From a virus, in IMG/VR virus record IMGVR_UViG_3300047554_000685, positions 15,363-79,362 of that record: DNA of 64,000 nt; one strand, given 5' to 3'. The position numbers and the translations under genes were made by a program. The notes beneath the pieces were generated by a model. That model was given only the letters and a program-made list of their open reading frames with translations. It ran no database searches and had not been told where the DNA came from. Numbering within the stretch: the stretch's first letter is position 1; every line of letters starts with the position of its first letter. Positions 1-17,591 of this stretch are shown here, one piece after another.

Positions 1-901
1 CCATACGAGCTGCAATCATAAGAGCAGACTGAGGGTCAATAATTACGTGAGACTTTTCCTCGAGGTCGTAGACGTCATCGAGCATACGGTCATATGTCCA
101 TATGTCACCATCAACATGTCCTAGGTTGTCCCAGCAACCGTCGTCCCAGACATAAACCGAACCATCAATGTCAATCATGTAGAGTCGGTCAATACCAGAC
201 CCGTCTAAGCAAACCCGAGCCAAGAACTCTGGGCCGTAGTTTGCGTCAAGCTCGTGAGCGTACTTGAATGGGTTTAGTTCTTCGTTCTGCTTAGGGTAGT
301 TGATCTGATCAACGTAGTTAGAGACAGTGTATCCGCCAGCAGTAACTGACTTCTCTTTCTTGTCTTCGCGCTCAACAATGGCACGCGCCCAGCGCCAAGC
401 AGCGTCTCCACCCCAGAGTGCCCATGCGATACGCCCGTTAGATGGAAAATTGTCTTGGCCAGGCTTCCAGCCCTTACCCTTTTTATCAACTTCGTGACGA
501 GGGAAATACTTTGCAATATGGCGGATCTTGCGAATGCCAATTTGACCACCCTTAGCAAGGGTGCGGGCAGTATTCAAGCCAACAGGAGTTCCGCCTCGGC
601 CTTCTTCTTTACGCCATTCCAAAGCTTTCTTTGCCTCGGCTTGGGCGGACTTAGGAATGGTATACATTCTATCGGCAGAGGCAACAATTGCATCTTCTTC
701 TAGAGTGGCTAGAACCTTCTCGGCTAAAAGGGTTTCGGACCTAGTTAAAGGAGTATCCGAGGTCTCCCATTTGTTTTCTGCAAAGAGGTCTAATGCCACA
801 CCGCTGGCAACGACGGCTCCTACGGCAGTGTCAATAACTACACCGTGTGTATTGTTAGCATAGAATGCTAGTTCGCCAGAGCGGCCGATTAGGTGGTTCA
901 T
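1..901 (-). CDS. Phage head-associated protein (partial, runs off window end)
   Basis: Not in ORF track. Translated by hand from ATG at 901 (MNHLIGRSGELAFY...), open to position 1. Contains EAKKALEWRKEEGRGGTPVG...KYFPRHEVDKKGKGW...PSNGRIAWALWGGDA, a motif seen in phage head-morphogenesis proteins. GTAAAAT promoter-like motif about 40 nt upstream. Confidence 0.75.
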   Translation of the reverse strand, partial: MNHLIGRSGELAFYANNTHGVVIDTAVGAVVASGVALDLFAENKWETSDTPLTRSETLLAEKVLATLEEDAIVASADRMYTIPKSAQAEAKKALEWRKEEGRGGTPVGLNTARTLAKGGQIGIRKIRHIAKYFPRHEVDKKGKGWKPGQDNFPSNGRIAWALWGGDAAWRWARAIVEREDKKEKSVTAGGYTVSNYVDQINYPKQNEELNPFKYAHELDANYGPEFLARVCLDGSGIDRLYMIDIDGSVYVWDDGCWDNLGHVDGDIWTYDRMLDDVYDLEEKSHVIIDPQSALMIAARM

Positions 902-962: not shown

Positions 963-1130
963 TTATTTATCGGGTGTGATATCTTTGATAACAACGCCAT
1001 TCTCGTCTACAAATTCGCTGTCATCTTCATAATCTGGTACTGGGTTTCCGATCACTTTTGCTAAAAGGGCCCAATACTCAGGATCATTTTCAGTATATCC
1101 GCCTAGCATGTCAGGCTTTTCTTTACTCAT
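963..1130 (-). CDS. Small acidic hypothetical protein (55 aa)
   Basis: Hand translation MSKEKPDMLGGYTENDPEYWALLAKVIGNPVPDYEDDSEFVDENGVVIKDITPDK; start overlaps the stop of the ArdC ORF (ATGAGTAA). Confidence 0.6.
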   Translation of the reverse strand: MSKEKPDMLGGYTENDPEYWALLAKVIGNPVPDYEDDSEFVDENGVVIKDITPDK

Positions 1131-3303
1131 CTGAGTCTCCATCTGATTTAGATTTGTTTGATGCTCGGTAACCCTCGATAGGGCTCCAGTCTCCCAGATC
1201 CATACCTAGCAAATAGTCTACTACCTTCTGAGCCTCGGAAGATGCTTTCATAACCATATCCGGGTTGTCTTGTAGTGCTTCTAGCCAGCTCTTTACATAC
1301 GCTGCAGTGTTATCAAAGTCACTGTTAACACCAAACATGCTAGCAAGGATTGCTGCAGAGATTTCTGCAATAAGTTCCTCTTCACCTCTAGCCGCATTAT
1401 CAGTTCCGTAGTTCTTGGTTAGTTCGGTACGGTCAAGGCGATCCTTGTGTCCGGTGCTGTGGGCAAGCTCGTGAGTAATAGTGTCAAACATATCTTCTGG
1501 ACTATTGAACTGCTCCTTGGTTGGGAGGGTAATGACGTCAGAAGCTGGGTTCCAGTTTGGAGAAGAAGAGTGGCTACCATACTCACCTACGTAGGTATAA
1601 GAAACTTCAGGGGCTTTCAAACCCTTAGCTTCCATAGACTTGCGGTATCGCTCTAGGATGAAGTCCTGAGACTCTAAAGGAGTTTTAGGTTCGCCAGCTT
1701 CAGCCTTAACCGTAGGCAGGTTTAGGCCGTCAATCTGCTCAACGTTAAATACGGTCTTTACACCAAATGTTACGTAGCTACCAGTTACCTTTTCTTCTCC
1801 GGTTGAAGAGTCTTTCTCTTTCTTAACCCTCTTGTAAGGAACAAGGATTTGTACACCCTTCTCGCCCTTACGAACCTGCCCGCCTAGCTCGGTGGCTTGG
1901 TTGTAAGTCATCCAGCGTGGGTCGCTATATCCAGATAGTTGCTGATAGAGCTTAAGAACAATCGAGTTGATGCCGCTATAGATGTGTTTTGACGCTGGGT
2001 TGCGCGGAACGAATGCACCAGCATAGTTAGCATCATCCTTGAATGGTTTACGCCAAGGAGCCTTACCTTCTTTAATCTTTTCCAGTAAGCCAGACAGAAC
2101 TCGCTCTTTAGCATCCTTGCTGTCAGATACTGATTTAGCACGGTTGAAAGGTTTTTTGCCTGGGGCTTGATTAAACCCTAGAAGGGGAGCATCAACTGAA
2201 TCAGGGTTAGTGTCCGGGTTAAGGCTTGAGTCTTCTGGAGTAGTAGACGCCATTCTTGCTGACTGTAGGGTCGGAGCAACCTTAGTCTTTAGCGGGTTCC
2301 ACTGAGGAAGGACGTCATTACCTAGTAGGTAGTCGGCAGCCAACTGAGCACGGGTCATGGCGTCAGTCACAGCCTTGTCCGCATCAATGCCATCTAGGTT
2401 TCTGATGTGAGTGAGCAGGTAGCTGATCGAGTTCTCTGGGTCAGCATCAAGACCAAACATCTTTGCTAGAAGCATGGAGCCTAACTCAGCGGTTAGCTCT
2501 TCTTCTGCGTAGGCATTACTATTTCCATCCAATGCCTTCTTAACTTCTTCTCGGTTAAGTCGGTTAGTTCTACCCGTGCTGTGGATTAGTTCGTGGGCAA
2601 TAGCGTTGAACCAAGACTCGTCGCTATCAAAGTTTGCTCGGAGTGGTAGTCGTACTTTATCTACATCTCTACCGTAGCTTGGTTGCCAGCGAGGATTCTG
2701 ATCTTTATCTAGTTGAATACCATAGAGCTCTGGTTGCTTGATACCGCGGATCTCGGCCGCCTCGCGCATTCTGTCGAGAACAATGTCTACAGCCTCTTTT
2801 GCGGTGTAAGACTTGTTTTCGTCAGCGTTGTATGGATCGATTCCTTGGATCTGGTCACCATTAAAAACAGTGACTTTTCTAAACTCAAAGTGCTCAACAA
2901 CCTTGCCATCACGACTGGTGACAAAGAAACTAGGTACAAGAATCTGAGTACCCTTGGTTCCAGCCGAGATAGAGCCACCAGCCTGAGCAACCTGAGAAGC
3001 AGTCATCCAGCGAGGATCACTGAACCCATTTTCTGAGGCCGCGGCTTCTAGAGCAATCATGTTAGGGCCGGTGTAGTGGGTGTTGCTTGCAGGGTTGACT
3101 GGAAGAGGGCGATTAGCGTCCCTGCTCCACTTACGTACCCATTCTTTTAGTTTTCTAGGGTTGCGTAGTTTTTCTAGGACATCGCTTAGAACGCTAGACG
3201 CTGCAGCCTTATTTGCCTCTGTTACAGAAGCCAACTTCTCATCTAGCTGTTCTTCAGTCAACTCGAGCGGATTAGTTCTAGACCCCGGCTCGCCTTCAGG
3301 CAC
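1123..3303 (-). CDS. Tandem ArdC-like (DUF1738 ssDNA-binding) + zincin metallopeptidase domains, two copies; probably the C-terminal part of a frameshift fusion
   Basis: Two ArdC-N units (P.NPAS...Y.G.N...DPRWMT..Q....GG....G.KG.QILVP...VFN..QI.G), each followed by HELIH/HELAH and EEL.AE motifs. The frame stays open upstream to about 3432 with no clear RBS before the GTG at 3303. Confidence 0.85.
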   Translation of the reverse strand: MPEGEPGSRTNPLELTEEQLDEKLASVTEANKAAASSVLSDVLEKLRNPRKLKEWVRKWSRDANRPLPVNPASNTHYTGPNMIALEAAASENGFSDPRWMTASQVAQAGGSISAGTKGTQILVPSFFVTSRDGKVVEHFEFRKVTVFNGDQIQGIDPYNADENKSYTAKEAVDIVLDRMREAAEIRGIKQPELYGIQLDKDQNPRWQPSYGRDVDKVRLPLRANFDSDESWFNAIAHELIHSTGRTNRLNREEVKKALDGNSNAYAEEELTAELGSMLLAKMFGLDADPENSISYLLTHIRNLDGIDADKAVTDAMTRAQLAADYLLGNDVLPQWNPLKTKVAPTLQSARMASTTPEDSSLNPDTNPDSVDAPLLGFNQAPGKKPFNRAKSVSDSKDAKERVLSGLLEKIKEGKAPWRKPFKDDANYAGAFVPRNPASKHIYSGINSIVLKLYQQLSGYSDPRWMTYNQATELGGQVRKGEKGVQILVPYKRVKKEKDSSTGEEKVTGSYVTFGVKTVFNVEQIDGLNLPTVKAEAGEPKTPLESQDFILERYRKSMEAKGLKAPEVSYTYVGEYGSHSSSPNWNPASDVITLPTKEQFNSPEDMFDTITHELAHSTGHKDRLDRTELTKNYGTDNAARGEEELIAEISAAILASMFGVNSDFDNTAAYVKSWLEALQDNPDMVMKASSEAQKVVDYLLGMDLGDWSPIEGYRASNKSKSDGDSDE

Positions 3304-3401
3304 TGAAGGGCGAACAGAGTTATCAGCCGCAGACTTGCGGTACTTATCTAGAATGCTCTTGATTCTGTCTAAATCTGGAGCGTCCTGATCTAATCCAGGC
3401 T

Positions 3402-3432
3402 CAGCCCCCTCGCTGGGGGCTAGGCTTTTGGG
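3402..3432 (-). promoter_or_regulatory. Putative -1 programmed ribosomal frameshift signal
   Basis: In-frame heptamer C CCA AAA (3432-3426), 4 nt spacer, then hairpin AGCCCCC-AGCGA-GGGGGCT (3421-3403); the -1 frame is the frame of the ArdC ORF. Confidence 0.7.
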
Positions 3433-6400
3433 TTTTTCTCGATTAGTGCTCGTAAACGATCAGCATAAGCATCTAGCTTGCGCGCTGCGTTCTCGCCAAT
3501 ACCACGGTTAGTTGAGCGTAACCAACTAACAGCTGATTCGATTGCCCTCAGAATGTCTTCAGGATTATTTCCTACCACATCAATAAGGCCAGCCATATCT
3601 CCTTCGGAGTCGTCGTTTAACAATCGAGCGTAGACATCACCTAATGACTCGTTTTCTTTTGATAGGTTGGCGGCGGCCCATGCGGCGGCGTCCTCGCGAT
3701 CATCAAACTCTTTACTGTAGCTGTCAGAATCGCTCTCGGGAGAATCTACATAACCTACCCATTTGCCAGTTTCTTCATCCTGACGAACTCCACCTTCCCA
3801 GCCGCCTCCGCGAACATCTCCGAGAGGGTACTCTTTGTCGTTCATATGGGCTTCAATGTCAGCAACGTCAGTAGGGTAGTAGTAGTCAAAGAAGTCTTTT
3901 AGATCTTCAAATGCCTTACCAAATTCAAAATCGCTACCCGCATCTTCTGGGTCGCGCTTAGCTGCTTCAATAGGTCCTAGATCGGACTCGATCTTGGCAA
4001 GCAAGTCATCAGCTGCCTTCTTAAGACGAGCTTCTAGGTCCTTACCTCCCTCTGAAGTAGGGCGCATTGAATTGTATGCATCCATTAGCTCGGAGTATAG
4101 GTAGTAAGCATCATCAATATCGTTCGGGTCAAGGCCCTCGACGAAGTCTTTGCCTAGGAATGCATAGCCTTTTTCATCGCTGTTCTCGGTTTCCTCGGCC
4201 AAAGAAACTAGCTCTGGTTTCATCTGCTCCCAAGAAGTTCCGTACTGCTTTCCGGCTGCTTGATCAAAACCCTTATCACCAGACTCTAACTTGGCAATTG
4301 CATCATCCATGTCGCTTGACCAGCGGCCATAACGCTCGTCGGCTCGTAGACGCTTTAGTGCATCTAGGTCACCCTTAGAAACTAGCGAGTCAATGTAGTT
4401 ATTGATTCCGCCCTCAACGTCATCCATTTCTTTCAGCATGCTGATGATAGATGAAACATCGCCCTTTGAGCGGTTCTCTAGGTCCTTGAGAATTTCATCG
4501 CGATCAGCGTCAGATAGGCCCTTAGCGTAGACGTCACGCTTTACAGAGTCAATCATCTTCTGAGAAGGCTTGCCGTACTGCCCCAAGTTTTCCTTGTCAC
4601 CAAGGTCGCGGAGCTTACCGATGAATCCACCAGCCTGAGCCTTAGTCAGGTTGTTTCCTTCTAGAGCCTCTTTGATAGCCTGAGCAGTTTCTGAGTCAAT
4701 ACCTGACTTGGTCTCAGAGAGGTTCTTAAGGTAGTTGTATTGGGCTTCGGTTGCTGGCTCCATCATCTTTGGAGATAGAGTTTTGCCTGGAGCTTGGTCG
4801 AAGCCGTCAATATCAACTCCAGCGTTTTCAAGCATGTCTGCAATCAGCTCTGGATCTTCGTTGGCATAGAAGTCAATAAAGTCTTCAGCGTAGTACTGAG
4901 GCTTCTGCATTACACGCTTGCCATCTGGGTGATCTACCGCTACGTCATAGACCATGTCATAGAACTCGTCTGGGTTCGTCCGACGCAATTTAAGGAGGTA
5001 GTCCCTCATTGACTCGGCTACGCTGTCTTTGGTGTCTTGATCTAGTTCGTCCCAAGCATCGGCGATACTTTTACCAGAAGCTTGATCAAATCCAGGCTCT
5101 TCTTCGCCCTTACGTGCGTTGATGTCTGCTAGGGCGTCCTCAATCTGAGACTGGTACTCGCTGTAGCTCGGATCATTTACGATGTCCTCGAGGAAGTCCG
5201 AGTCATCTCCGTCAATCGCAGCCTGAACTTCATCTGCCTTTGCCTGATCAGCGTCCGCAAGATTCTTCTGCTTACGCGAGTCTAGGGCCTCCGCGTTGGT
5301 GCGAATGTCTTCAACAATCTTGTCAAAAATTCCACCAGTAGTGTCGTTAGCAATGTCACGCTCGGCACCAAGTGCATCAGCAACATTAGACGAGTCACGT
5401 AGACGCTCGGCAATCTGGTTTGCCTCGTCCATCTTGTCAGAAACCTCTGCCTCAGATAGTCCGTCAGCTTCCAGTGAGTTTTGGTAGTCCTCTAGGGCTT
5501 GGTCAATTGCAGACTCTACATCAGCGTGAGCTGAGTCGTATTCGCTGTCAAACTCACTGTCAATTCCTGCAGCTTGGTCAAAGCCTTCGGTCTGCTGGCG
5601 GTCTGGACGACGACGTAGCTTAGCGGTGAGCTTCTCAATTGAGTCACGATCTAGTCCTGCGTCAAGCTGAGCAAGAATGTCGTTCATCTCGTCAGGAGTC
5701 AATTCTTTGGTAGTTAGGTAACCCTGAAGCGAGTTGATCTGACGCTCGGTTGGCTTGGTTGGATCAACACCAGGCTTAAAAGGCTTCTTAGTTAGGTCAC
5801 CAAACAGAGAGGCCATCTGGGCCTTTGTTAGGTTCTTGTTAGCTAGAGCATCGTCAATAGCCTTTTGAGTGACAGGGTCAATACCGTCACGCTCTGAGTT
5901 AAGCTCCTCAAGAAGTGCATACTGCTTGTCAGTAGCTGGCTCCATCTGCTTTTCAGATAGTGGCTTAGCTGGTGCATCCGCCTTATCTTCGCCAGTCTTC
6001 TGGTCAAGACCAGCAGGTGGCTCGAGTTCATCTAGCTTCTTGTCTAGGTGCGCGTTGATGCCTTTACGAATATCAGAAGCAATGTCAGTTTCATCATAGG
6101 TCGGGCCAGCAGTGCCAGTAGCGACTTCATCGCCATCTTCGTTGTAGACGCCCCAGTTGCGGTAACCGTCTTCGTCTTCATCGCCAACCCAGATGCTATC
6201 ATCGCTGTCGCCATTGAAGATCTTGTTTGCAAGCTCGTCTACCTTGTTAAGTAGACCTTCCTTATCAACAGCCATGCGAGCCTGCTCCTGAGCTGCATCG
6301 GCTTGCTCCTTCTCCCACTTAGCACGGGCACGCTTCTCTACCTGCTCTGGAGAATTGTAGAAGTCTTCCTGAGCCTTACGGTCAGCTTCACGCTTAGCCT

Positions 6401-8597
6401 TCTTCTCTTCTGCATAGTTAGGGTTCTCTAGACCGTTTTCTGCCATAGCAGCAACACGGTCAAGGAAGTCAGGCCAAGACTCGCGGTTATTACGAAGCAC
6501 AGTCTCAACTGGCTTACCATCTACAGAGACCTGCATTTCGTCCCAAGCGACGTAGCCCTTTTCGTCATCGAACCACGAGCCGTCACGATACTTAACCTCT
6601 ACGCGACCATCTGGAGATGTGTAGGTTTCCTCTCCTCCAGTGAAGTTGCCGTCTGCATCCTCTTCGAGGAAGAACTTGTGATCACCTAGGTCCTTGGCAA
6701 TCTTTTTGCCAGCTGCGCTTAGCTTCGGAGCTTCACCCGGAGCCTGATCAAAACCACCGTCGTCCATACCAGCGCCGAAGTCATCATTGCGCCAAGCTTC
6801 GTAGAGGACATCATAAGCTTTGCTCGGGTCCTGTAGAACTTCAGCAAACTCTTCAGCTGCCTTAAGAGCGTCTTCCTTAGAGTCGTAAGTTTGCTTGTCC
6901 TCGTAGTTATATTCTAGGTTTTCATCAACCAAACCTTGAGGAATAGACTTAGTTACTTCGTACTTGTTGCCCTTACGCTTTACCTCTACAAAGCCTTCGT
7001 CATTACCGTACTCAAAGTCGTCGCCCATGTTGTCAGACTGCTTTAGACGGTTATCTGGGCTGAACCAGCTTTCCTGCTTCAAAAGCTTTTCTAGACCGTC
7101 GCCGGTGTCGCCATCTTCTAGATCTCGGTAGCTTGCACGATACGATCCGATGTATTGACCATCATAGGTAACACTAATTCCAGAAAGGTCGGTGGCTCCA
7201 AAGCCGACGTCACCTTCGCCATCAGCTTCCCAGTTAAGTTCTAGCTTACCATCAGGAGAGGTATACTCGGCCGAGCCGCCCAAGTCTTTCCAGTTCTGAG
7301 GATTTGATAAATGATCCCAGTCAATCGCGCTGTCAAACCAGTTTGAACCCTCTCCGGGCTTCTGATCTAGGCCAGGCTCTTCTGGAGTTTCGTCGCCCTC
7401 TCCATTAAGAGCATCGTAGGTCATACCAATCTTGTTGAGACCAGCCCAGTCCTGACCAACGCCAAGAATCTTGCCGTCTTTGTCGCGGATTTCAAACATC
7501 GGGGTATTTGGATCAATGGCACCGCTCTCGCCTGCGCCTTCGGTCATGTAGTCACCCTCTGGTAGGGTGTCAACAGCCTTTACAGTTTGACCAGTCTTAG
7601 ATGTGAAGGAACCGTCTTCATTCTTGGTCCAACCCTCTGGAGCATCTACACGAGTCTTTAGGAAGTCTTCTAGAGGAATTGCAGAGGCAATATCTGCCTT
7701 GCTCGGGGTCGCAATAGTGCGGTTAGCCTTGAGACCCTTTACCTTAGAAAGTGCGCGCTTAGAGAGAATAGCCTTTACTGGAGCAGTCTTAGCGGCGTCA
7801 ATAGTATAGATACCGTCAGGAATTTCGGGGCTGTCTTTAATCTCAATCTGGAAGTTGTTGGTTCCCTTAGGTGCACCAACAATGCGTGCATCTTCCGAAA
7901 AGATACTTCCGTCTCCGCGACTAAAGAATCCACGTAGACGCCCAAATTCCTCAGCGAATCGGCCATCACGGTGACGACGACGAACCGCTGCCAAAATCTT
8001 TGACATTGCTGAACGCATTGCAAAGCTCATCTTAAAGGCTGCAGTGATAGGAAGTACTACGTCTTCTGGAACATAGCCAGCAGCAACCAATGCGCCAAGC
8101 TTTGCGCTGGCGTAGTCAGCCTCTACAGAACCAGGCTTGGTTGCGTAGGCCGCGTAAACATCAAGACGAGCCTGCTCCGAGGCAATGCGAGGGTCACTAG
8201 CTACCCAAAGGGCGGTGACTCGAGATAGGGCAGAGGCAGTCATAGCACCACGGTTAGTACGTGACGGGTGTCCTAGAGGAAGGAAGTCGGTGTATTCGCC
8301 AAGGCCAGAAGCGATAATACCGTGGTGAGAGTAGTTAAGGACGTTGTCTACAGCATTTGCTGCAAATAGCATCCACTCGCTTGGGTCAGCATCTAGATTG
8401 AAGTGGATTGCGGTTTCGATGATGTTATCAATCGAAGCGTCTGACACCTGACGGGCCGAAGCAACCAGTGCATTCTGAGTCTTCGCGTACTCTACGATCG
8501 CTAGTTTAGAGAGGTGCTCTGCATCCTCGGTTGTGTAGTCGCGATCAGCGTAGAAGTTTTCAATCTTGCTGATGAGATTAGTGAATGCTGAGCTCAC
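3420..8597 (-). CDS. Giant acidic modular (polyvalent-type) virion/head-associated protein
   Basis: ORF track gives 1733 aa from 8621; likely start is GTG at 8597 after AGGAAGG. Contains RRHRDGRF, repeated G[FL]DQ linkers, duplicated YTSPDG modules and duplicated EPAT..Q...NLTKAQ modules. Lies in the head operon downstream of portal. Confidence 0.75.
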   Translation of the reverse strand: MSSAFTNLISKIENFYADRDYTTEDAEHLSKLAIVEYAKTQNALVASARQVSDASIDNIIETAIHFNLDADPSEWMLFAANAVDNVLNYSHHGIIASGLGEYTDFLPLGHPSRTNRGAMTASALSRVTALWVASDPRIASEQARLDVYAAYATKPGSVEADYASAKLGALVAAGYVPEDVVLPITAAFKMSFAMRSAMSKILAAVRRRHRDGRFAEEFGRLRGFFSRGDGSIFSEDARIVGAPKGTNNFQIEIKDSPEIPDGIYTIDAAKTAPVKAILSKRALSKVKGLKANRTIATPSKADIASAIPLEDFLKTRVDAPEGWTKNEDGSFTSKTGQTVKAVDTLPEGDYMTEGAGESGAIDPNTPMFEIRDKDGKILGVGQDWAGLNKIGMTYDALNGEGDETPEEPGLDQKPGEGSNWFDSAIDWDHLSNPQNWKDLGGSAEYTSPDGKLELNWEADGEGDVGFGATDLSGISVTYDGQYIGSYRASYRDLEDGDTGDGLEKLLKQESWFSPDNRLKQSDNMGDDFEYGNDEGFVEVKRKGNKYEVTKSIPQGLVDENLEYNYEDKQTYDSKEDALKAAEEFAEVLQDPSKAYDVLYEAWRNDDFGAGMDDGGFDQAPGEAPKLSAAGKKIAKDLGDHKFFLEEDADGNFTGGEETYTSPDGRVEVKYRDGSWFDDEKGYVAWDEMQVSVDGKPVETVLRNNRESWPDFLDRVAAMAENGLENPNYAEEKKAKREADRKAQEDFYNSPEQVEKRARAKWEKEQADAAQEQARMAVDKEGLLNKVDELANKIFNGDSDDSIWVGDEDEDGYRNWGVYNEDGDEVATGTAGPTYDETDIASDIRKGINAHLDKKLDELEPPAGLDQKTGEDKADAPAKPLSEKQMEPATDKQYALLEELNSERDGIDPVTQKAIDDALANKNLTKAQMASLFGDLTKKPFKPGVDPTKPTERQINSLQGYLTTKELTPDEMNDILAQLDAGLDRDSIEKLTAKLRRRPDRQQTEGFDQAAGIDSEFDSEYDSAHADVESAIDQALEDYQNSLEADGLSEAEVSDKMDEANQIAERLRDSSNVADALGAERDIANDTTGGIFDKIVEDIRTNAEALDSRKQKNLADADQAKADEVQAAIDGDDSDFLEDIVNDPSYSEYQSQIEDALADINARKGEEEPGFDQASGKSIADAWDELDQDTKDSVAESMRDYLLKLRRTNPDEFYDMVYDVAVDHPDGKRVMQKPQYYAEDFIDFYANEDPELIADMLENAGVDIDGFDQAPGKTLSPKMMEPATEAQYNYLKNLSETKSGIDSETAQAIKEALEGNNLTKAQAGGFIGKLRDLGDKENLGQYGKPSQKMIDSVKRDVYAKGLSDADRDEILKDLENRSKGDVSSIISMLKEMDDVEGGINNYIDSLVSKGDLDALKRLRADERYGRWSSDMDDAIAKLESGDKGFDQAAGKQYGTSWEQMKPELVSLAEETENSDEKGYAFLGKDFVEGLDPNDIDDAYYLYSELMDAYNSMRPTSEGGKDLEARLKKAADDLLAKIESDLGPIEAAKRDPEDAGSDFEFGKAFEDLKDFFDYYYPTDVADIEAHMNDKEYPLGDVRGGGWEGGVRQDEETGKWVGYVDSPESDSDSYSKEFDDREDAAAWAAANLSKENESLGDVYARLLNDDSEGDMAGLIDVVGNNPEDILRAIESAVSWLRSTNRGIGENAARKLDAYADRLRALIEKNPKA

Positions 8598-8669
8598 TTT
8601 AGGCCTTCCTGAGCAGGGCAATAATTGCTTAAGCTATGATACTAGAATTTTACCGTATTACCAGACAAT

Positions 8670-9365
8670 TTATTTTCTAGTTGACTTCGGATGTGCTTTT
8701 GGAAGCAGGTCGTTGTCGGTTGTGTATTTTGAGTTTTTAGGTGAACCAGAGCGTAGTAAATGCAGATAAGCATTTACACGAGCCATGGCCCAAGAGTTGC
8801 GGTTTTGATCTGGTCGGTGGGATGTAGAGAATGCACCTGCACCACGACGGTACACAGCTTTAAGGGCTCCCATGGTAGCTTTTCTACCGTCTGGTGCTTT
8901 CTTGTTGTGTGTTTCCATTTTGTTTTTTAGGGCTGTCACAATTTCTTCAGTAAAGTCTACAGACTTACCCGTGGCTGCTGACCCCTTTTTGTTTTTGCTT
9001 GAACCCTTGATTTGATCTTTCTTAGGTGCTGGCTTCGAACCTGCGGTTGCAGTTACTGCACCGTCCGGGAGAACTGCAAAACGGCAAAGTCCTCCGTCCT
9101 CCACTTCAGCTGCAATAATTGAGCAACCATTAGGTGCGTTGAAGAAAACGCAGTTGCCGCATTTTACGCCGATCTTAGCGTTGTCTTCATTTTCTGAGGC
9201 AGGGGTGTATCCGGCCCAGACGCCAGTGTTGTCATCATTAAATTTGCCATACTTATTCGCAATAAGTTGGAGTGCATCTGCAAGTTCTTGCTCTTCGGGG
9301 ACTAGGTTATATCCACCAGCAACTACAGAATCGTCTTTTTTGAATACATCACCAACATAAGACAT
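8670..9365 (-). CDS. Phage head-region protein with Cys-rich (HiPIP-like CxxC..C..C) domain and conserved C-terminal domain
   Basis: KCGNCVFF...CSII...GLCRF and LKAVYRRGAGAFSTSHRP...WAMARVNAYL; ATG at 9365 coupled to dps stop (TAATG). Confidence 0.65.
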   Translation of the reverse strand: MSYVGDVFKKDDSVVAGGYNLVPEEQELADALQLIANKYGKFNDDNTGVWAGYTPASENEDNAKIGVKCGNCVFFNAPNGCSIIAAEVEDGGLCRFAVLPDGAVTATAGSKPAPKKDQIKGSSKNKKGSAATGKSVDFTEEIVTALKNKMETHNKKAPDGRKATMGALKAVYRRGAGAFSTSHRPDQNRNSWAMARVNAYLHLLRSGSPKNSKYTTDNDLLPKAHPKSTRK

Positions 9366-9820
9366 TACTGAACCCCTAAAGTCGATTTCAATTGCCATTG
9401 CCACTTCTTGTGCATGTCAATGCGCCCGGCTAGGAAGTCAGCAATGCCTTGCTCATTGCATGCATCAGCAATGCCGAAAGCCTGCTCATAGCAAAGAAGC
9501 ACTCCCTGATTAACGCGAGCCAAAGATTCAACCATAGAGACCGGATCTCCAAGCTCCCTCTCTTGACGAACAATACAAGTTAGTTCTACGAAGTCGGTGA
9601 CTAGGTACGGGGCGTCATAGCCTAGCTTGCGGATGTTTTCAGCAAGAGGGTCAATGGCGCTATCAACATCAGAATAGATCTCTGCAAAAAAATCATGGAA
9701 CTGATGAAAAGTAAGACCCTTCACATTCCAGTGATATCCCTGAGCTAGAAACCCAAAGGTAGTTACATCAGCTAATAGATGTGCTAGTTGCTCTGCTAGC
9801 CCGTCCTTCTCATGGGTCAT
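9365..9820 (-). CDS. dps: Dps family ferritin-like DNA-protection protein
   Basis: HWNVKG..FHQFHDFF.E.Y....D.LAE.IR.LG ferroxidase signature, C-terminal HKKWQWQL. Confidence 0.92.
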   Translation of the reverse strand: MTHEKDGLAEQLAHLLADVTTFGFLAQGYHWNVKGLTFHQFHDFFAEIYSDVDSAIDPLAENIRKLGYDAPYLVTDFVELTCIVRQERELGDPVSMVESLARVNQGVLLCYEQAFGIADACNEQGIADFLAGRIDMHKKWQWQLKSTLGVQ

Positions 9821-11577
9821 GGTGTAGGTACCTCAGGTTCTTCTTCTGGAGCTGCCGATGTAGGTGGTGCCTCTGGAGCGGGGGTTTCGGCTGAAGGCTC
9901 TGGAGCTGGACTGCCCGGGCCTCCATCAAGAATGTTTTCAATCTCTGGTGTCATCGGGGCAACAGAGCTTGCTTGATGGGCTGCGTTAATAATATCTTTA
10001 AGCTCTGGTGCGACTGCCTCGAGCATCGACTGAGTCAGTTCTGGGGTGATCATACCCTTCTCAACAACTAGACGTAGCGCAAGCTCTTCTGGGCTTGGTG
10101 CGTCTGCATCGGAGAAGCCGTGAGCACGACGCCAAGTGTTGAAGGATACAGCCATCTTTTCAAAACCAGAGTCAGCATCAGCTGCACGGTCATTACGAGT
10201 AGCAACCTGGCTCGGGTCATACCAAACCTGAATACGATCTACTTCATCTTTGTCGTAGCCGTTGGCAATTAGGTATGGACGTAGGTAAACAACAGTCAAG
10301 GCATCGGCAATAAGAAGCATCAGAGGCTCGATGTGCGCCTTGTAGAGGGCTTCATCAATCTGTAGCGCGTTAGAGTACTTAACGTTAGCTAGGCCTGTCA
10401 CAACGTCTTTAGGGACGTCTAGACCCTGCATAATGCGTTCCAGCACACGGTCAGCTCGAGAAACTAGCGATGCGTCGAAAGAACGCTCAAACTTGAACTG
10501 CTTGATCTTGTCGCCAAGTTCTGCTGGACCACGGATGATCAAAGGAACAACGGCACTCGCAGAGTCCTCGTCCTTAATCGGAGTGGTCATTGCATCTATT
10601 AGCTGATCTTCGAAGTCGTCAGCGGCTTCTTCGGTATTGTAAAGCTCGTTGTATTCGCCATCTTCATCGTATGGGTAGTCAGGATCTGGGCTAGCTGCAA
10701 CAGACAAACCATCAGGCAGGTACAAAGCACCAGCGTTGAGGCGAGAACGGGCCGTAGCGCGGAAAGTGCGGTTGAGTAGCAATAGTTCTGCACATAGATC
10801 CAAAAGTCCGCGTAGCGAGCTGTCAGACTCCATCGAGTAACGTGGGTGTGCTTTCCAGATACGTCCGATGAATGCATCGGAAGGTAACCTAATTGCATTC
10901 TTACCCGCTTGACCTGAAGAAGAGCCGCTAGCATCACGAATCGGATTGATTGTGTAGTTTCCACGAGAGTCAAGCTGTAGTTCATCTACAGAACGAATGT
11001 CCCATGATTCTGGGATCTGCGAACCGATGCGCTCTGGTACCTGAACTAGATAACATTCGCCGGTAACTTGAAGATTTAGTGCTGCATCTTTTAGAAGACC
11101 AGCTTGGCCTCCATACGCTGAGTCAAGACGAGCAAGTGCACGCTGGGCAGCTGATGCTAGTTGAGGATCAACAATTTTTGATAGGTCTACAGGTATTGGA
11201 GATTCTGAAGGGTCGTCTACAGCAGCAGCATAAAGGCGGATACGCGATACGACAGACGCCACAAGGTTAAACGCATATTTAACTTCACCAATTGCATCGT
11301 AATACTCCCATGCTTCGGCTTGCCATGCAGTCGCGGCTGACTGACGACGATTTTTAAACATCTCCGCTTCAGTTTTGTCTCCGATTCGAATCTGAGCAGC
11401 GGCAGCGGTCAGTGGGCGAGGAGTGTTGTAAGCTGCAGGCTCTGCATAGACAACACCAAACGAGTCTACAGAGATGCCTGGTGCAATAGGTGTCGCAGTT
11501 CGGGGAGTAGATGCTCGCAAACCGGCGGCCAATGCCCTACCACGAGCATTTTTGTTGTTCTTTTTAAAAATTCCCAA
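9817..11577 (-). CDS. Portal protein
   Basis: 586 aa, two genes downstream of TerL; WQAEAWEYYDAIGEVKYAFN...SRIRLY and LNLQVTGECYL resemble actinophage portals. Confidence 0.8.
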   Translation of the reverse strand: MGIFKKNNKNARGRALAAGLRASTPRTATPIAPGISVDSFGVVYAEPAAYNTPRPLTAAAAQIRIGDKTEAEMFKNRRQSAATAWQAEAWEYYDAIGEVKYAFNLVASVVSRIRLYAAAVDDPSESPIPVDLSKIVDPQLASAAQRALARLDSAYGGQAGLLKDAALNLQVTGECYLVQVPERIGSQIPESWDIRSVDELQLDSRGNYTINPIRDASGSSSGQAGKNAIRLPSDAFIGRIWKAHPRYSMESDSSLRGLLDLCAELLLLNRTFRATARSRLNAGALYLPDGLSVAASPDPDYPYDEDGEYNELYNTEEAADDFEDQLIDAMTTPIKDEDSASAVVPLIIRGPAELGDKIKQFKFERSFDASLVSRADRVLERIMQGLDVPKDVVTGLANVKYSNALQIDEALYKAHIEPLMLLIADALTVVYLRPYLIANGYDKDEVDRIQVWYDPSQVATRNDRAADADSGFEKMAVSFNTWRRAHGFSDADAPSPEELALRLVVEKGMITPELTQSMLEAVAPELKDIINAAHQASSVAPMTPEIENILDGGPGSPAPEPSAETPAPEAPPTSAAPEEEPEVPTP

Positions 11578-11589
11578 GGGTACTCCCTG

Positions 11590-11877
11590 TTATTCAGCCT
11601 TAGAAGAAATAATACCCACTAATGCAGACGTTGATAAGACTAATGATACCACAAAAACAGCATCTGGCACTAAAATATATGCCACAACAAAGACCAATGA
11701 CACCCAAAAACCAGTACACCAGTTGCAAGTGATCAAATATCCAAGTTTTGTGTCTGGTGGAAACCTTTTCCACACTTTTTCTCGCGCAAACTCGAAGATT
11801 GTATCTGTAGTTATTGCTCGAGTAACTCTATACGCAGCTAAAACTAATAGCAAGTACGAAAACCAGTCAATGCTCAT
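11590..11877 (-). CDS. DUF1360-like membrane protein
   Basis: LAAYRVTRAITTDTIF...GYLITCNWCTGFWVS motif with hydrophobic helices. Confidence 0.75.
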   Translation of the reverse strand: MSIDWFSYLLLVLAAYRVTRAITTDTIFEFAREKVWKRFPPDTKLGYLITCNWCTGFWVSLVFVVAYILVPDAVFVVSLVLSTSALVGIISSKAE

Positions 11878-12239
11878 AGTCCGTCTTTCAGTGCAGTAAT
11901 AGTTTTATAGGCATTCCAACTGCGAAGACGTGATCCGCATCCGCAATTGGTGTCTTTTTGGAATGCTAGCATCTTTCTAGAGGTGGTTACAACCCTGTAA
12001 TCACTTTTTTTGTCTGCAGCAGGCAGTAAAAGGTCGTATTTCTCCTGAAAAATGATTTGAGCACCATTAGGAGAGTCTTGGGCAACAAAAATAGCTTCGT
12101 CAGTAACAACAACACGAGTAGTTGCCCTATAAAATGCATCGGGAGTGGCTGGATTTGATTTTAAAGAGTAAACATCGTCAAAGGTTCCAGCCGGAACCAC
12201 TGCCAAGTGAGCCGGAAATACGTCTAGTAGTATTTTCAT
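11874..12239 (-). CDS. Hypothetical phage protein (CGCG motif)
   Basis: Translationally coupled between TerL and DUF1360 gene; NCGCGSRLRSWN. Confidence 0.7.
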   Translation of the reverse strand: MKILLDVFPAHLAVVPAGTFDDVYSLKSNPATPDAFYRATTRVVVTDEAIFVAQDSPNGAQIIFQEKYDLLLPAADKKSDYRVVTTSRKMLAFQKDTNCGCGSRLRSWNAYKTITALKDGL

Positions 12240-13642
12240 CAGCGCACTCGGAAGATTTTTCCGTTGTTCCCTGGTCTAGTGTTTGGAATTCGACGATCAG
12301 ATAGAGATTTAGCTCGAATCTTACCGCCAGAGAAGCCTGCTGGTGGCTTGATCAGCAGAGCGGTGAGTGCGTGGACGAGTGCATCAACTCGGTCAGGTGA
12401 TTTACCTTCTCCAGGCACCCAAGAGATCATTTGCGATTCCAAGTCCGCCAAATAGCCAACGTGATGGACACGATGTTGCTCATATGCAAGGGTGATAGGC
12501 TCTGCTCGGAGCGCTTTTCCTTGCTTGGAGTGGACTTCGAGGACCTTAATAGTTGGGTCGATGGTGTTAATCGCGTTGCGTACAAGTGCACCGCCTTGAT
12601 TAACTTCCGCAACAACAGGGCAACCCCACTTGCGAGCCATTTTAACAACTTGGTTTGCCCAGACGTCTGGCGATCCGTGAACCGACGCGTCTTCGAGTAC
12701 CCACGCTTGCCTTTTGTAAAGGTCATGCTCAGAAGTCGAAGCACAAACCACAATACCGCACTCATCTCTCGGATTTTCCGCAACAGATGGATCAACTCCA
12801 ATCACTCTTAGTGGCGTAGAGAGTGGGTAATACCCTTCTCGCCCAGCTTCAATCATTTCCTCGGTCCATAGAGCACCCTCCATGGCTTCAAGCATTTCAC
12901 CGTAGAGTTCCTGACGAGCAAGGGATGTTCCCTCATAAACACCAAGCATGGTGTCAAGATACGCACCAGAAAGGTTACCCGCATTGTCCATTGTTGAACC
13001 TCGAGTGATCTTTACGATCTCACCTTTCATGGACTCTTCGATAAGTTTGTAAAGAAGCGGTGTTCGCTTCGGGGTAGTAGTAACTAAAATTTTTGGATTA
13101 GCGCCAAGACGGGTACCAACACGTAAGTTATCAAACGCAGTCATACCTGCGGCATCTGGAGTTTGACGCCAAGCTGCAATCTCATCGCCCCAGGCGTGAG
13201 TGAACTGAGGACCACGGAGTGAGTCAGGCTCATCGGCGGTAAAGAGTGTAGCGGTGTTTCCGTTAGGCCAAGTTAGACGGCGCTTCGAAGGCTCGTAGAG
13301 TGGACGCTCGCTCGGAGGGGTTACGTTCAGGATTCCTGACTCACCTTCAACGATAACGTCACGCACGTCAGCTGCGGTACGTGCAACAAGACCAAAGCGA
13401 CGCTGGCCGGTGTTGGTGTATTTAGCTTCTTCGCGTACCCACTCAGAAGCGAGACGAGTCTTACCGAAACCACGTCCAGCTAAGACAAGCCAGATATTCC
13501 AATCACCCGGTGGAGCCTGCTGTTCTGGGCGACCCCAGACGGACCAGTCCCACATTAGTACTTCGGGATCTAGTCCAGCCAACGCCTCGCGTTGCTCGTC
13601 TGGAGGTAGGAGCGCGATCTGCTCCATTATGCTTTTGCCCAT
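12239..13642 (-). CDS. terL: Terminase large subunit
   Basis: Walker A AGRGFGKT, LRGPQF..AWGDE Walker B, TTTP motif, RNase H-like GVDP and SPDRVDA. Confidence 0.95.
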   Translation of the reverse strand: MGKSIMEQIALLPPDEQREALAGLDPEVLMWDWSVWGRPEQQAPPGDWNIWLVLAGRGFGKTRLASEWVREEAKYTNTGQRRFGLVARTAADVRDVIVEGESGILNVTPPSERPLYEPSKRRLTWPNGNTATLFTADEPDSLRGPQFTHAWGDEIAAWRQTPDAAGMTAFDNLRVGTRLGANPKILVTTTPKRTPLLYKLIEESMKGEIVKITRGSTMDNAGNLSGAYLDTMLGVYEGTSLARQELYGEMLEAMEGALWTEEMIEAGREGYYPLSTPLRVIGVDPSVAENPRDECGIVVCASTSEHDLYKRQAWVLEDASVHGSPDVWANQVVKMARKWGCPVVAEVNQGGALVRNAINTIDPTIKVLEVHSKQGKALRAEPITLAYEQHRVHHVGYLADLESQMISWVPGEGKSPDRVDALVHALTALLIKPPAGFSGGKIRAKSLSDRRIPNTRPGNNGKIFRVR

Positions 13643-13651
13643 GCTATTAGT

Positions 13652-14263
13652 CTAGCTTAGCCAGCGTTTTTCTAGGTCAGCAAAAATATACTGGTTAAAC
13701 CTAAAAGCAAGAACTACCTCGTCAATAAAAATTTTTGTGTCGGCAGTAGAAAGATTTAGACTGTCAAGTCCCTCGCGGTAGGTCTCTTTGTATCGGACCT
13801 TATCATCTATTTCGTCAAACTCATAGAAAGACAGAAAGTTTGGCGGAATCATCAGATTGCGCATAACAAGAGTCGCGATCGCCTGACCACCTGAAAGATC
13901 TCCGAGGTAGCGGGTGTAGTGGTGCGCTAGTAGGCGCGTCCAATCTTTATTTTGAACAAGAAAGCTAATGTGGTCGGCGTATTCCGTGGTGCTTCGGCAG
14001 ATTAGTTTTGATCCACCAAGTGACTCTATGTCGCAAACGATTCGCTCGAAACGGTCAAGCCTGCGGTCAAACATTGGCCACGGATTGCTTTGGTCGTCCC
14101 AAGCCTCTAGAGCACCGTAAATTGGAGCTAATTGGGTTAGGTAGTCTCGGTAAGCATCGGCCCCCACTTCACCGCGCATGAGTGCAATCATAAACGGGCT
14201 ACGTTCGGCAGCTGTGTGAGCCTCTTTAGAGGCCTCTTTAACAAGTTGTGAAAGCATAATCAT
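13652..14263 (-). CDS. Heme oxygenase (biliverdin-producing)
   Basis: Proximal His in HTAAERSPF, HHYTRYLGDLSGGQ signature, EVVLAFRFN. Confidence 0.92.
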   Translation of the reverse strand: MIMLSQLVKEASKEAHTAAERSPFMIALMRGEVGADAYRDYLTQLAPIYGALEAWDDQSNPWPMFDRRLDRFERIVCDIESLGGSKLICRSTTEYADHISFLVQNKDWTRLLAHHYTRYLGDLSGGQAIATLVMRNLMIPPNFLSFYEFDEIDDKVRYKETYREGLDSLNLSTADTKIFIDEVVLAFRFNQYIFADLEKRWLS

Positions 14264-14300
14264 CCTAAGTCGTTGGGATATGATTTTAGCATATCAGCTC

Positions 14301-14594
14301 TTACGTCCACTCAAGCGTCTCTGGTTCGAACTCTAGTTTTGCAAACTTGTATAGGTGTTTGGCAAGAATAAACTTGATCTTTTCTAGGGACTCTTCTGAA
14401 TCAGATACCGCCATTAGTCGGATCATGTTGCTGTCTGGGATAACCATCGCTTCAGCCGCGCCTAAGCCTGGAAAAAGAAGGAAGCCCTCGTAGAGGGCCG
14501 CCTTCTTAGACAAATGAGAGTTAAGCTGCTTAACATACCGTTCAGCGCGTTCAATCTCTAGGTAGTGAAAAACCTTGAAGGCAAACCCGGGCAT
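14301..14594 (-). CDS. DUF2218-like protein
   Basis: AERYVKQLNSHL...HLYKFA...LEW pattern. Confidence 0.65.
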   Translation of the reverse strand: MPGFAFKVFHYLEIERAERYVKQLNSHLSKKAALYEGFLLFPGLGAAEAMVIPDSNMIRLMAVSDSEESLEKIKFILAKHLYKFAKLEFEPETLEWT

Positions 14595-14595
14595 T

Positions 14596-15150
14596 TTACT
14601 TAATGCGATTCTCTGCGGAGATCGGAGTATAAACCTTAGAGGTTGCCGTTACTGGCTTCTTGTAGCCGTAGCGTGCAAGACGGAAGCGTAGGGCTCCGTG
14701 AGTAACGCCGAGACGCTTAGCAAGACGGTAAAGGGTAACGCCTTCTACGGTATGCGCGTGATTTAGTAGGCGCGTGTACTCCTCGGCCTCTTCACGGTAC
14801 TTCTTACCGTTAGAGCGGACCTGCTGTGCGTACGGCTGAAGTTCTAGCAGACGCTCAAGCGTAGCTTCAGAAGGCTCTACGTAAACAGGCTTTGGCTTCT
14901 CTGGCTTTAGCGGTGGCTCTGGAAGTTCTAGGCGGGTGTGAAAGCCTGGAATGCTGGTCTTTGCAATCTGGCGGACGCGCTCACGGGTTAGCCCGGACGC
15001 TCCTGAGATCGCCTCGAGAGTCCAGCCCTTATCACGTAGCTCACGGATCAGCTGGTCTCGGAAGTCGGTTGATACAGAATCAGCAAAGATGTCGTAGATA
15101 ACCTTCGGCAGCTTCTGGTTCTTCTTGATGTATTCGTTCATTTTTGTCAT
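14596..15150 (-). CDS. Double HTH DNA-binding protein (sigma-70 region 4-like)
   Basis: WTLEAISGASGLTRERVRQIA and VTLYRLAKRLGVTHGALRFRL. Confidence 0.8.
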   Translation of the reverse strand: MTKMNEYIKKNQKLPKVIYDIFADSVSTDFRDQLIRELRDKGWTLEAISGASGLTRERVRQIAKTSIPGFHTRLELPEPPLKPEKPKPVYVEPSEATLERLLELQPYAQQVRSNGKKYREEAEEYTRLLNHAHTVEGVTLYRLAKRLGVTHGALRFRLARYGYKKPVTATSKVYTPISAENRIK

Positions 15151-15422
15151 TACTTTCGTGGTCGCTTGATTGCTTTCATTACAACAGGGGTTAAAGTTAT
15201 CACGTAATCCTCGCTGTCAACGTGAGACGTAATTCGTACATCAATAACGTTGATCATTGATTCAATCAGTGAAACAATTCGGTGAATGTCCTCTACAGGT
15301 CCAATCGGGCTAGCAACAATCTCTACCGTGCAATCAAGCATGTCAAATAGCTGGGTTAGATGAATGTTGTCGCGAAACTCTTCGTAACTAGTTGTTTCGA
15401 TTACTATCGGTGCGTCTCGCAA
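15150..15422 (-). CDS. Hypothetical protein
   Basis: Coupled to downstream gene, GGAG RBS upstream. Confidence 0.55.
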   Translation of the reverse strand: MRDAPIVIETTSYEEFRDNIHLTQLFDMLDCTVEIVASPIGPVEDIHRIVSLIESMINVIDVRITSHVDSEDYVITLTPVVMKAIKRPRK

Positions 15423-15569
15423 AGTTCTCTCCGTCTCCTAGGTCATGGATTGATCCGTCATCTTCTACTAATGCCCTATATAGAACACTCGCAGTCCAAA
15501 ACAGAACTGATAGAACAATAACTGTAAAAGTGAGAATTGTCAAAATTACAATCAAAGCGTTAATCATTT

Positions 15570-15785
15570 TTAATCCCTACCGCTGAGAATAGCTAGTGCA
15601 ATAGAGGTAAGAGCCAGCGTGATTGCGACAGCGGTGCCGGCAAGAATGCTTGCGGCGGAGGGGGCGGGGTTCGTAGTAGTAGACGCCACTAATCCAATCG
15701 AAACAGCAAACGCGGAGAAAGCTGCAAGGACTGAGAGCGTAGATGGCCATGAGATCTGGCGAAGGAAAAGAATGAAGCGTGTCAT
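15570..15785 (-). CDS. Small membrane protein
   Basis: Two hydrophobic segments; in operon. Confidence 0.6.
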   Translation of the reverse strand: MTRFILFLRQISWPSTLSVLAAFSAFAVSIGLVASTTTNPAPSAASILAGTAVAITLALTSIALAILSGRD

Positions 15786-15998
15786 TTAATGGACGTCCTT
15801 ATGCGGGTAGACGACGCCTAAGAGCGCCGAAGGTTCGTTGTTGTTCTTGTGCTTACGGTAGAGCTTGTAGAAGTGGAATAGACGCACGAGAAAGTAAATG
15901 CCGACCCCAGCAAAGAAAAGAATTGCAAAAGGGTCGGCACTTACTACCGCTACGGTGTCACTTGTTGGGGTCGTATTTGCCATACAACAAGCATACAC
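15786..15998 (-). CDS. Small membrane protein
   Basis: One TM segment; start uncertain. Confidence 0.5.
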   Translation of the reverse strand: MYACCMANTTPTSDTVAVVSADPFAILFFAGVGIYFLVRLFHFYKLYRKHKNNNEPSALLGVVYPHKDVH

Positions 15999-16006
15999 CT
16001 TATGGT

Positions 16007-16606: not shown

Positions 16607-16698
16607 TTAGCGCCTACCTTTCCTTTGAGAGTAATTTCTCGGCGTTTATTGTCTTGGTGTTTCATCAATATTCAGTTATAAACGGAGAGCCTATCACG

Positions 16699-16912
16699 TA
16701 GGGGCGTCTATTGCAACTCGAAATATCCAGAGATGCAAAAAAGCACACCCTGAGCTTTTATTGCTCGGATGTGCTCTCCGTAGGATCTATTTTACACCCG
16801 TAGGAGCGTCTATTATTTGGATCGGGGCTTGACTTTTTGCTGAAGTATGGTACCCCTGGACGATTTTTTTGAAAATTTGTGGAGCCCGATTTTATAAATA
16901 GGGGCGTCTATT
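16699..16912 (+). repeat. Three copies of TAGGRGCGTCTATT at about 100 bp spacing
   Basis: Copies at 16699, 16801, 16899; a variant at 16192; related GGCGTCTA at 43784, 43878, 44061. Confidence 0.8.
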
Positions 16913-17540: not shown

Positions 17541-17573
17541 AAAGAAAACCCCCTAGGGGGCTAGGGGGCTTTC
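17541..17573 (-). terminator. Intrinsic terminator (example of the cassette family)
   Basis: GC-rich hairpin CCCCCTAG/CTAGGGGG followed on the minus strand by TTTTCTTTT. Confidence 0.8.
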
Positions 17574-17591
17574 GGTTTACCGCTTTGGGGG

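Follow-up and report, generated by a model that had tools for sequence, protein, structure and literature searches.

How one giant polypeptide could become many working proteins is the question raised by the phage locus described here. Polyvalent proteins are believed to be the cargo with which phages and plasmids disarm the defences of a host on delivery. The DNA analysed (the window) is a stretch of 64,000 nucleotides from IMG/VR virus record IMGVR_UViG_3300047554_000685, and makes up most of a linear viral contig of 79.4 kb (estimated completeness about 47%) from an uncultured lake actinophage. Its minus strand carries a giant gene made up of a long open reading frame (ORF), ORF1, and a -1 ORF that encodes two units, each with an ArdC-N and a zincin domain. 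An earlier note made from the sequence had claimed that nine G-[FL]-[DN]-Q linkers punctuate the giant protein at its module boundaries and could be processing sites. We consider these peptides to be probable recognition sites cut by some sequence-specific protease, with a probability of roughly 0.6 given the comparisons below, and the family offers a concrete candidate answer to the question posed.

All nine peptides were found where the note had placed them, seven in ORF1 and two in the -1 frame with the ArdC-N/zincin units. They are given here in the order of the protein, together with the low-confidence segments of two AlphaFold2 models discussed further below:

7362-7373, minus strand: junction motif 1, EPGLDQKPG (core GLDQ), in low-confidence segment 407-424
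6744-6755, minus strand: junction motif 2, GGFDQAPG, ends module 7361-6744, in low-confidence segment 614-634
6000-6011, minus strand: junction motif 3, AGLDQKTG, ends module 6743-6000, in low-confidence segment 867-889
5574-5585, minus strand: junction motif 4, EGFDQAAG, ends module 5999-5574, in low-confidence segment 1009-1024
5082-5093, minus strand: junction motif 5, EPGFDQASG, ends module 5573-5082, in low-confidence segments 1171-1186 (first model) and 1-13 (second model)
4794-4805, minus strand: junction motif 6, DGFDQAPG, residues 103-106 of the second model, at the edge of low-confidence segment 104-112
4260-4271, minus strand: junction motif 7, KGFDQAAG, ends module 4793-4260, in low-confidence segment 278-291 of the second model
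3385-3396, minus strand: junction motif 8, EPGLDQDAP, in the -1 frame 11 residues past the shift site, ends the ORF1 C-terminal module
2167-2178, minus strand: junction motif 9, LGFNQAPG, between the two ArdC units

Composition-preserving shuffles of the 2,503-residue fused reading of both frames gave a mean of 0.098 motifs and a maximum of three in 20,000 trials, i.e., nine were observed where about 0.1 is expected. The nine borders, each of which carries the motif (9/9), separate ten pieces of 96-412 residues that represent at least six unrelated families, and the boundaries named in the note, those of two YTSPDG modules, two EPAT...NLTKAQ modules, the acidic helical modules and two ArdC-zincin units, were confirmed:

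3420-8597, minus strand: ORF1, 1,725 amino acids (aa), GTG start at 8597, Shine-Dalgarno sequence AGGAAGG at 8604-8610, TAG stop at 3420-3422
7374-8597, minus strand: conserved N-terminal domain (N-domain), about 408 aa, presumed head-incorporation domain
7361-6744, minus strand: YTSPDG module 1, 206 aa, beta-rich
6743-6000, minus strand: YTSPDG module 2, 248 aa
5999-5574, minus strand: EPAT...NLTKAQ module 1, 142 aa, helical
5573-5082, minus strand: very acidic helical-bundle module, 164 aa, net charge -35
5081-4794, minus strand: helical module, 96 aa
4793-4260, minus strand: EPAT...NLTKAQ module 2, 178 aa
4259-3385, minus strand: ORF1 C-terminal module, 292 aa
2167-3384, minus strand: ArdC unit 1, ArdC-N plus zincin, HELIH at 2581-2595, EELTAE
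1126-2166, minus strand: ArdC unit 2, ArdC-N plus zincin, HELAH at 1459-1473, EELIAE

The TTG start at 8621 given for ORF1 in the ORF list was rejected, as the GTG at 8597 is the one with the AGGAAGG sequence and the 99%-identical homologue P0003 begins at GTG.

The motif is largely confined to the giant gene. The search of the rest of the genome that the note had recommended covered this contig and a complete 136-kb relative, which has terminal repeats, and returned only scattered matches elsewhere. Six-frame translation of the window gave four further matches, three in ORFs of 13-63 codons and the fourth in an unrelated 340-codon ORF (44729-44740), while the remaining 15 kb of the contig held one, in a 41-codon ORF. 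Matches to the back-translated pattern lay inside the giant gene in 10 of 12 cases in the window's contig and in 12 of 14 in the complete relative. Because the codons vary synonymously at every motif position across the nine sites (GGC/GGT/GGA/GGG; TTT/TTC/CTA/CTT/TTA; GAT/GAC; CAG/CAA), selection acts on the peptide and not on the DNA; a DNA-level repeat or recombination signal was rejected on the same grounds.

The predicted structure of the protein places the ORF1 motifs between its folded parts. AlphaFold2 was run with a 32-33-sequence alignment on the TTG-numbered protein, once for residues 1-1200 (mean predicted local distance difference test score, pLDDT, 68) and once for residues 1171-1733 (mean pLDDT 82). 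Past residue 400, each long low-confidence segment holds exactly one motif: in the first model the motifs at residues 417, 623, 871, 1013, and 1177 fall one each into segments 407-424, 614-634, 867-889, 1009-1024, and 1171-1186, and in the second model motifs 5, 6, and 7 lie in or next to segments 1-13, 104-112, and 278-291. The remaining dips are short internal loops. No ORF1 motif lies inside a confidently predicted fold, the placement that the note had named as speaking against its idea; the ORF1 motifs are instead predicted to sit in disordered linkers, modelled as low-confidence coil, between folded units. Motif 9 sits in a stretch rich in S, T, P, and D that separates the first zincin from the second ArdC-N domain. 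Two other places in the protein resemble the motif. The only other low-confidence loop of the second model, at residues 174-179 (window 4560-4600, minus strand) within the 178-residue EPAT...NLTKAQ module, reads ...KENLGQYGKP... and is faintly like the junction peptide, and GVGQDW in the N-domain (window 7424-7447, minus strand) resembles a GLGQ variant of the motif found in relatives, but, lying in a conserved region that is predicted to fold with confidence (consensus GVAQDWAG), is not regarded as a junction.

Each of the ten pieces has an acidic isoelectric point (4.05-5.6), and the 2,491-residue product of both frames (window 1126-8597, minus strand) has no cysteine against about 24 expected from the other ORFs; its relatives also have none, and most of 150 giants with the same N-domain have 0-2 per 1,500-5,300 residues. 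Acidity together with the lack of cysteine is consistent with proteins that travel unfolded, but does not demonstrate DNA mimicry. For the ORF1 modules, Pfam and PHROGs gave no function, and the N-domain had no match in either. Searches with the multi-domain models returned no Foldseek match to the PDB at E <= 0.001, weak Foldseek rows (E 0.07-0.16) to PprA and to Whirly/PUR-type folds that bind single-stranded DNA, and, with VIA-align wide, generic helical bundles only (Z <= 8.3). The fold searches that touched the N-domain, including the MuF / SPP1 gp7 comparison, used a multi-domain model in which other parts dominated the results. An ESM Atlas search with homologue P0005 gave no usable match.

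Comparison with related loci, drawn from IMG/VR and a JGI metagenome, showed that the modules behave as exchangeable units. When 27 family members were cut at the motif and the pieces clustered, discrete module families of characteristic length emerged (EPAT...NLTKAQ, 142 and 178-180 residues; YTSPDG, 198-207; others, 164, 96-103, 92, 208, and 363-380), and homologues have gained, lost, duplicated, reordered, or swapped these families, each border being marked by the motif. In an unbiased 4-mer count, no repeat ranked above the junction peptide in any lineage, and each lineage had a form of its own:

Window lineage: [ED][ED]xG[FL]DQ[AKS][AP]G, 70 sites
Second lineage: [DE]APG[LF]DQDAP, 81 sites
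Third lineage: AxE[QE]GLGQ[DE][AV]P, 38 sites
Loci L021 and L023: GFxQxPG, 23 copies in a protein of about 5,100 residues (16 from an ORF1 of 3,341 residues, 7 from a -1 ORF of 1,779 residues)
Proteins P0035, P0075, and P0089 and locus L033: DLDQD

G, F/L, and Q are invariant in the three first lineages (70/70, 81/81, and 38/38 sites) while the flanking residues vary, and tandem copies 6-7 residues apart occur occasionally. Within a lineage the copies have changed together, in ORF1 and the -1 ORF alike, which points to one specific reader of the peptide. The position of motif 8 likewise holds the lineage's own motif in loci L004, L005, L006, L009, L011, L021, and L033. The N-domain heads a much wider set of 236 clusters (50% identity), mostly giants of 1,500-5,300 residues, of which only about the 15 nearest have G[FL]xQ punctuation; DSL-LC01 and Pumpernickel, the nearest phages in the catalogue, have giants that lack the motif. 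More distant giants with the N-domain have repeated 4-mers of other kinds (P0092, P0097, P0098, P0114, P0121, and P0213; QEMA/EMAT six times, DKMA four times, EDLP seven times, and PSPK seven times), which may be other junction codes.

The two frames of the giant gene are, we infer, joined by a conserved programmed -1 frameshift, for which the following features were found:

3426-3432, minus strand: slippery heptamer C_CCA_AAA in the ORF1 frame, ORF1 ending in ...AAC CCA AAA GCC TAG
3403-3421, minus strand: stimulating hairpin AGCCCCC-AGCGA-GGGGGCT, 4 nucleotides past the heptamer and overlapping the TAG stop
1123-3426, minus strand: -1 frame extension, 767 aa, stop at 1123-1125, fused product of 2,491 aa

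The hairpin has a GC stem of 7-8 base pairs (-27.6 kcal/mol, z = -2.6). The note had placed the eighth linker in the -1 frame, and this holds: the frame is open from 3459, its earliest possible start codon is a GTG at 3303, and motif 8, which lies upstream of that codon, can therefore be translated only through a -1 shift from ORF1. The signal (heptamer, spacing, and stem) recurs at 11 related loci with an invariant stem and a variable loop; the heptamer is identical to that of the window at 8 related loci and is of another kind at 2. Loci L004, L005, L006, L009, L011, and L013 have the same arrangement as the window, and seven sequences that average 70% identity share an invariant 31-nucleotide island made up of the heptamer, GCN, stop, and a stem enclosing a variable loop; the downstream ORF in these relatives is always in the -1 frame, lacks a start of its own, and reads PKS[LV]AP.... 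The more distant L020, L021, and L023 have kept the heptamer and stem with TAA as the stop, and in two further lineages (L033, positions 12374-12420, and L036, positions 12644-12690) A_AAA_AAA replaces C_CCA_AAA at equal spacing from a CCCCC-GATGA-GGGGG hairpin. The entire arrangement is in a single frame in P0041 and in the cluster representatives P0083 and P0087. A sequencing error at the junction of the two ORFs was rejected, given the recurrence at 11 independent metagenomic loci and the use of two canonical heptamers, as was an intrinsic terminator, since no T-run follows the hairpin and it lies within the reading frame. The trans-frame protein itself is a prediction. Elsewhere in these genes, the giant gene of L011 has one in-frame stop (12112-12114) away from any motif, and at positions 8364-8379 of L020 the -1 ORF is broken into two parts when compared with that of L021; either may be an assembly error or a real break.

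What the frameshift would add to the protein are the two ArdC units. Two stretches each match PF08401 (ArdcN; 168.6 bits, cut-off 22.6) and PF18818 (MPTase-PolyVal; 163.2 bits, cut-off 27.5), and the region matches phrog_7245 (E = 3e-120). Every family member inspected has an intact HExxH and Glu helix. ArdC-MPTase units are attached wherever downstream DNA or the full protein could be read, with the exception of L033, whose stored DNA ends earlier, and the nearest relatives without an MPTase (the giant of DSL-LC01 and gp82 of Pumpernickel) have no recurrent linker motif. No other peptidase of the two families searched, Trypsin_2 and Proteasome, was detected in the window's contig or the complete 136-kb relative, where MPTase matches were limited to the two ArdC units. 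In L021, the enzyme domains recognisable by Pfam lie past the shift site, and the motif-bounded modules downstream of the frameshift (15743-21079) include an ADP-ribosyltransferase (ADPrib_exo_Tox), as is also the case in P0040.

The giant gene is located among genes for the phage head. The minus strand of the window and the adjoining DNA encode, in order:

13652-14263, minus strand: heme oxygenase
12239-13642, minus strand: large terminase
Next in order, minus strand: 121-codon ORF
9817-11577, minus strand: portal
8670-9820, minus strand: Dps/ferritin-like and DUF5824 genes, between the portal and giant genes
Next in order, minus strand: ORF1 and the -1 ORF
N-terminus at window 2-901, remainder at L003 positions 11767-16266: 1,500-residue protease/scaffold protein with a head-maturation-protease region, extending just beyond the window
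L003 positions 9632-11662: major capsid protein, 677 residues, N-terminal part long and acidic, shell of the HK97 fold
After the capsid gene: major tail protein and head-tail adaptor

The portal is 74% identical to that of DSL-LC01, a metagenome-assembled Actinomycetia phage, and 60-64% to those of large Microbacterium phages, and the locus is therefore taken to be the head module of an uncultured actinophage. The giant gene product is presumed to be a head-associated polyvalent polyprotein, given its place between the portal and protease/scaffold genes. In the phage collection, near-identical DNA was not found, and by protein only the giant of DSL-LC01 has the same N-domain; single-protein scans for the loci of P0034, P0035, and P0089 returned nothing. 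Another phage protein, P0043, has DUF5824 fused to an ArdC unit.

The head proteins have a recurrent peptide of their own. [LIVM][VTI]A[SAG][AG] occurs in ten copies in the protease/scaffold protein, against 0.28 expected, and in two copies in the capsid protein, one of them at PVAITAG/ADIPG on the border between the acidic N-terminal part and the shell; VASG and VAAG also lead the 4-mer counts of the Pumpernickel (gp84) and L021 homologues. Four copies are present in the first 190 residues of the giant's N-domain (window 8030-8597) and none in the cargo modules or ArdC units. G[FL]xQ in turn is missing from the capsid, protease/scaffold, and portal proteins of the window's contig and of L005, L009, L011, and L013. 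The second peptide is the better candidate of the two for the code of a prohead protease, and its presence in the head proteins and the N-domain together with its lack in the cargo suggests that one agent handles the N-domain and the head proteins and another handles the cargo.

A picture that these observations allow resembles the Gag and Gag-Pol proteins of retroviruses, transposed to a tailed double-stranded DNA phage: a zincin dosed by frameshifting would cut a polyprotein loaded into the capsid and free 10 to about 24 swappable effectors for injection. With the zincin as the cutting enzyme this scheme is, as a whole, doubtful; its steps would be the following. The majority of ribosomes would end at the TAG and produce the 1,725-residue chain of the N-terminal domain and seven acidic modules, whereas a minority would slip by -1 at C_CCA_AAA and add the two ArdC-N/zincin units, for a total of 2,491 residues. 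Both products would enter the procapsid through the N-domain. The zincins, made in small amounts, would act in trans on the abundant short form, as the retroviral protease in Gag-Pol does on Gag. Cuts at the junctions would yield ten proteins of 96-412 residues, to be ejected and delivered with the DNA. A cut after Gln would leave the stabilising N-termini A, K, S, and D. Zincins usually prefer a hydrophobic residue at S1', which a cut before Phe or Leu would suit.

The assignment of the cutting to the zincins of the ArdC units specifically is a tentative one. They are the most plausible reader: besides the head-maturation protease they are the only peptidase domains found (Trypsin_2 and Proteasome being the other families searched), the nearest giants without an MPTase lack a recurrent linker motif, autoprocessing of polyvalent proteins by the MPTase has been proposed (PMC5512222), and no substrate of the ArdC protease has been reported. 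Several observations weigh against them, or against cutting altogether. The link between motif and MPTase is one-directional: the motif comes with an MPTase, but MPTases also occur without it, in P0042 and P0043, whose ArdC units are closely related (55-58% identical), in more remote giants that share the N-domain, and in polyvalent proteins of plasmids. In the L036 lineage, the frameshift and two ArdC units are present while a Q-type junction motif is missing. The motif also delimits the ArdC units, just as it would delimit cargo. The known function of R388 ArdC does not require its catalytic Glu, and no proteolytic activity was seen (PMC7213743). The virion RNA polymerase of phage N4 is packaged unprocessed, so that very large proteins can be ejected uncut (cited in PMC5512222).

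Other readers of the motif have to be weighed against the zincins. The prohead maturation protease encoded by the neighbouring protease/scaffold gene might cut the motif inside the procapsid, as happens to the internal proteins of T4 and to the inner-body and ejection proteins of phiKZ and SPN3US. The giant gene does lie in the head module between the portal and protease genes, such proteases cut packaged head and ejection proteins at short motifs (PMC10052503), and the N-domain has a recurrent motif in common with the head proteins. We nevertheless regard this protease as a rather unlikely reader, as the co-substrates to be expected (capsid, protease/scaffold, and portal) contain no G[FL]xQ, either here or in four relatives, and have instead the second peptide, which is absent from the cargo modules. 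In the complete relative, 12 of the 14 pattern matches fall within the giant gene itself. On the sole testable criterion, the giant falls outside the ordinary prohead-protease substrates. A host protease acting after injection, or a phage protease encoded outside the known part of the genome, is improbable. The contig is only about 47% complete and the concerted motif changes between lineages could follow different hosts, but in the complete 136-kb relative no Trypsin_2 or proteasome-type family, the only ones searched, accompanies the MPTases of the two ArdC units.

It is also conceivable that the motif is not cut at all. As a multivalent docking peptide, comparable to the cargo-loading peptides of encapsulins, it might organise or pace packaging and ejection by binding to a chaperone, to the portal, or to the inner surface of the capsid. 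Its predicted location in accessible disordered linkers, the HK97 fold of the shell, and the delivery of some giant virion proteins uncut agree with such a role, and invariant residues that co-change in each lineage fit any specific binding partner. Docking would not, however, need a motif at each border, of which there are nine out of nine here and 23 copies in the relative of about 5,100 residues, nor would it gain much from the tandem copies, and no other virion protein has the motif; we hold it to be unlikely. That the motif is a functionless remnant of linkers copied with the modules by duplication and recombination is very improbable. The modules have been shuffled and some are paralogous (the two YTSPDG, two EPAT...NLTKAQ, and two ArdC units), but unrelated modules carry the same motif, G, F/L, and Q have stayed invariant while the linker residues around them drift, the codons differ at each site such that there is no DNA microhomology beyond a few bases, and whole lineages have switched all their copies together. 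Cleavage by a sequence-specific protease remains the preferred reading. Of the note's interpretation, the border position stood, together with selection at the peptide level and conservation with lineage-specific variants; a processing role is probable, the observations speak neither for nor against a packaging signal, and the suggestion that the very acidic modules could be DNA mimics has acidity as its one argument.

If the motif is a cleavage site, it would provide a simple assay of MPTase activity, a rule for dividing hundreds of metagenomic giants into functional units, and a natural cassette system in which new anti-defence modules can be sought; cleavage by the zincins would make it the first substrate to be defined for the ArdC/MPTase peptidase. 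An uncut motif would still be an unusually strict conserved linker, implying the need for a binding partner.

The papers searched contained no description of the junction motif or of the frameshift. Among known systems, the viral polyproteins are alike in having a short recurring peptide at each domain border, and retroviral Gag/Gag-Pol shares the -1 shift at X_XXY_YYZ with a stem-loop, the short and long product, and the peptidase past the shift. Here, however, the virus is a tailed double-stranded DNA phage, the peptidase a zincin and not an aspartic protease, and the predicted products swappable accessory cargo instead of core virion and replication proteins. The prohead-protease systems (T4 gp21, phiKZ gp175, and SPN3US gp245; PMC10052503) also concern proteins of the head module, which the capsid takes in and which are cleaved at short motifs and ejected, but they use one motif for capsid, portal, scaffold, and cargo and mainly remove N-terminal propeptides, whereas in this phage the cargo motif is missing from the capsid, scaffold, and portal proteins, which carry another motif. 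The free-standing ArdC proteins of R388 and pSa (PMC7213743), of about 300 residues, have the same ArdC-N domain that binds single-stranded DNA and a gluzincin with HExxH and Glu helix, but here two such units are fused in tandem to a giant head protein, each bounded by the motif.

The closest likeness is to the polyvalent proteins described by Iyer, Burroughs, Anand, de Souza, and Aravind in 2017 (PMC5512222), in which a single polypeptide of a mobile element combines many unrelated domains, with ArdC-N and the zincin-like MPTase as hubs, delivery with the DNA is presumed, and autoprocessing by the MPTase was proposed with no site named. The note had likened the giant to such proteins, and the Pfam matches agree: judged by its domains, it is a polyvalent protein, with unrelated domains in one phage polypeptide and ArdC-N and MPTase hubs. 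It differs from the plasmid-type polyvalent proteins retrieved here, which are without the junction motif, and from the 2017 description, which mentions no junction peptide or frameshift (the words "linker" and "frameshift" occur zero times in the text). To that description, the present family adds a strict junction peptide at each border and a conserved -1 frameshift before the enzyme part.

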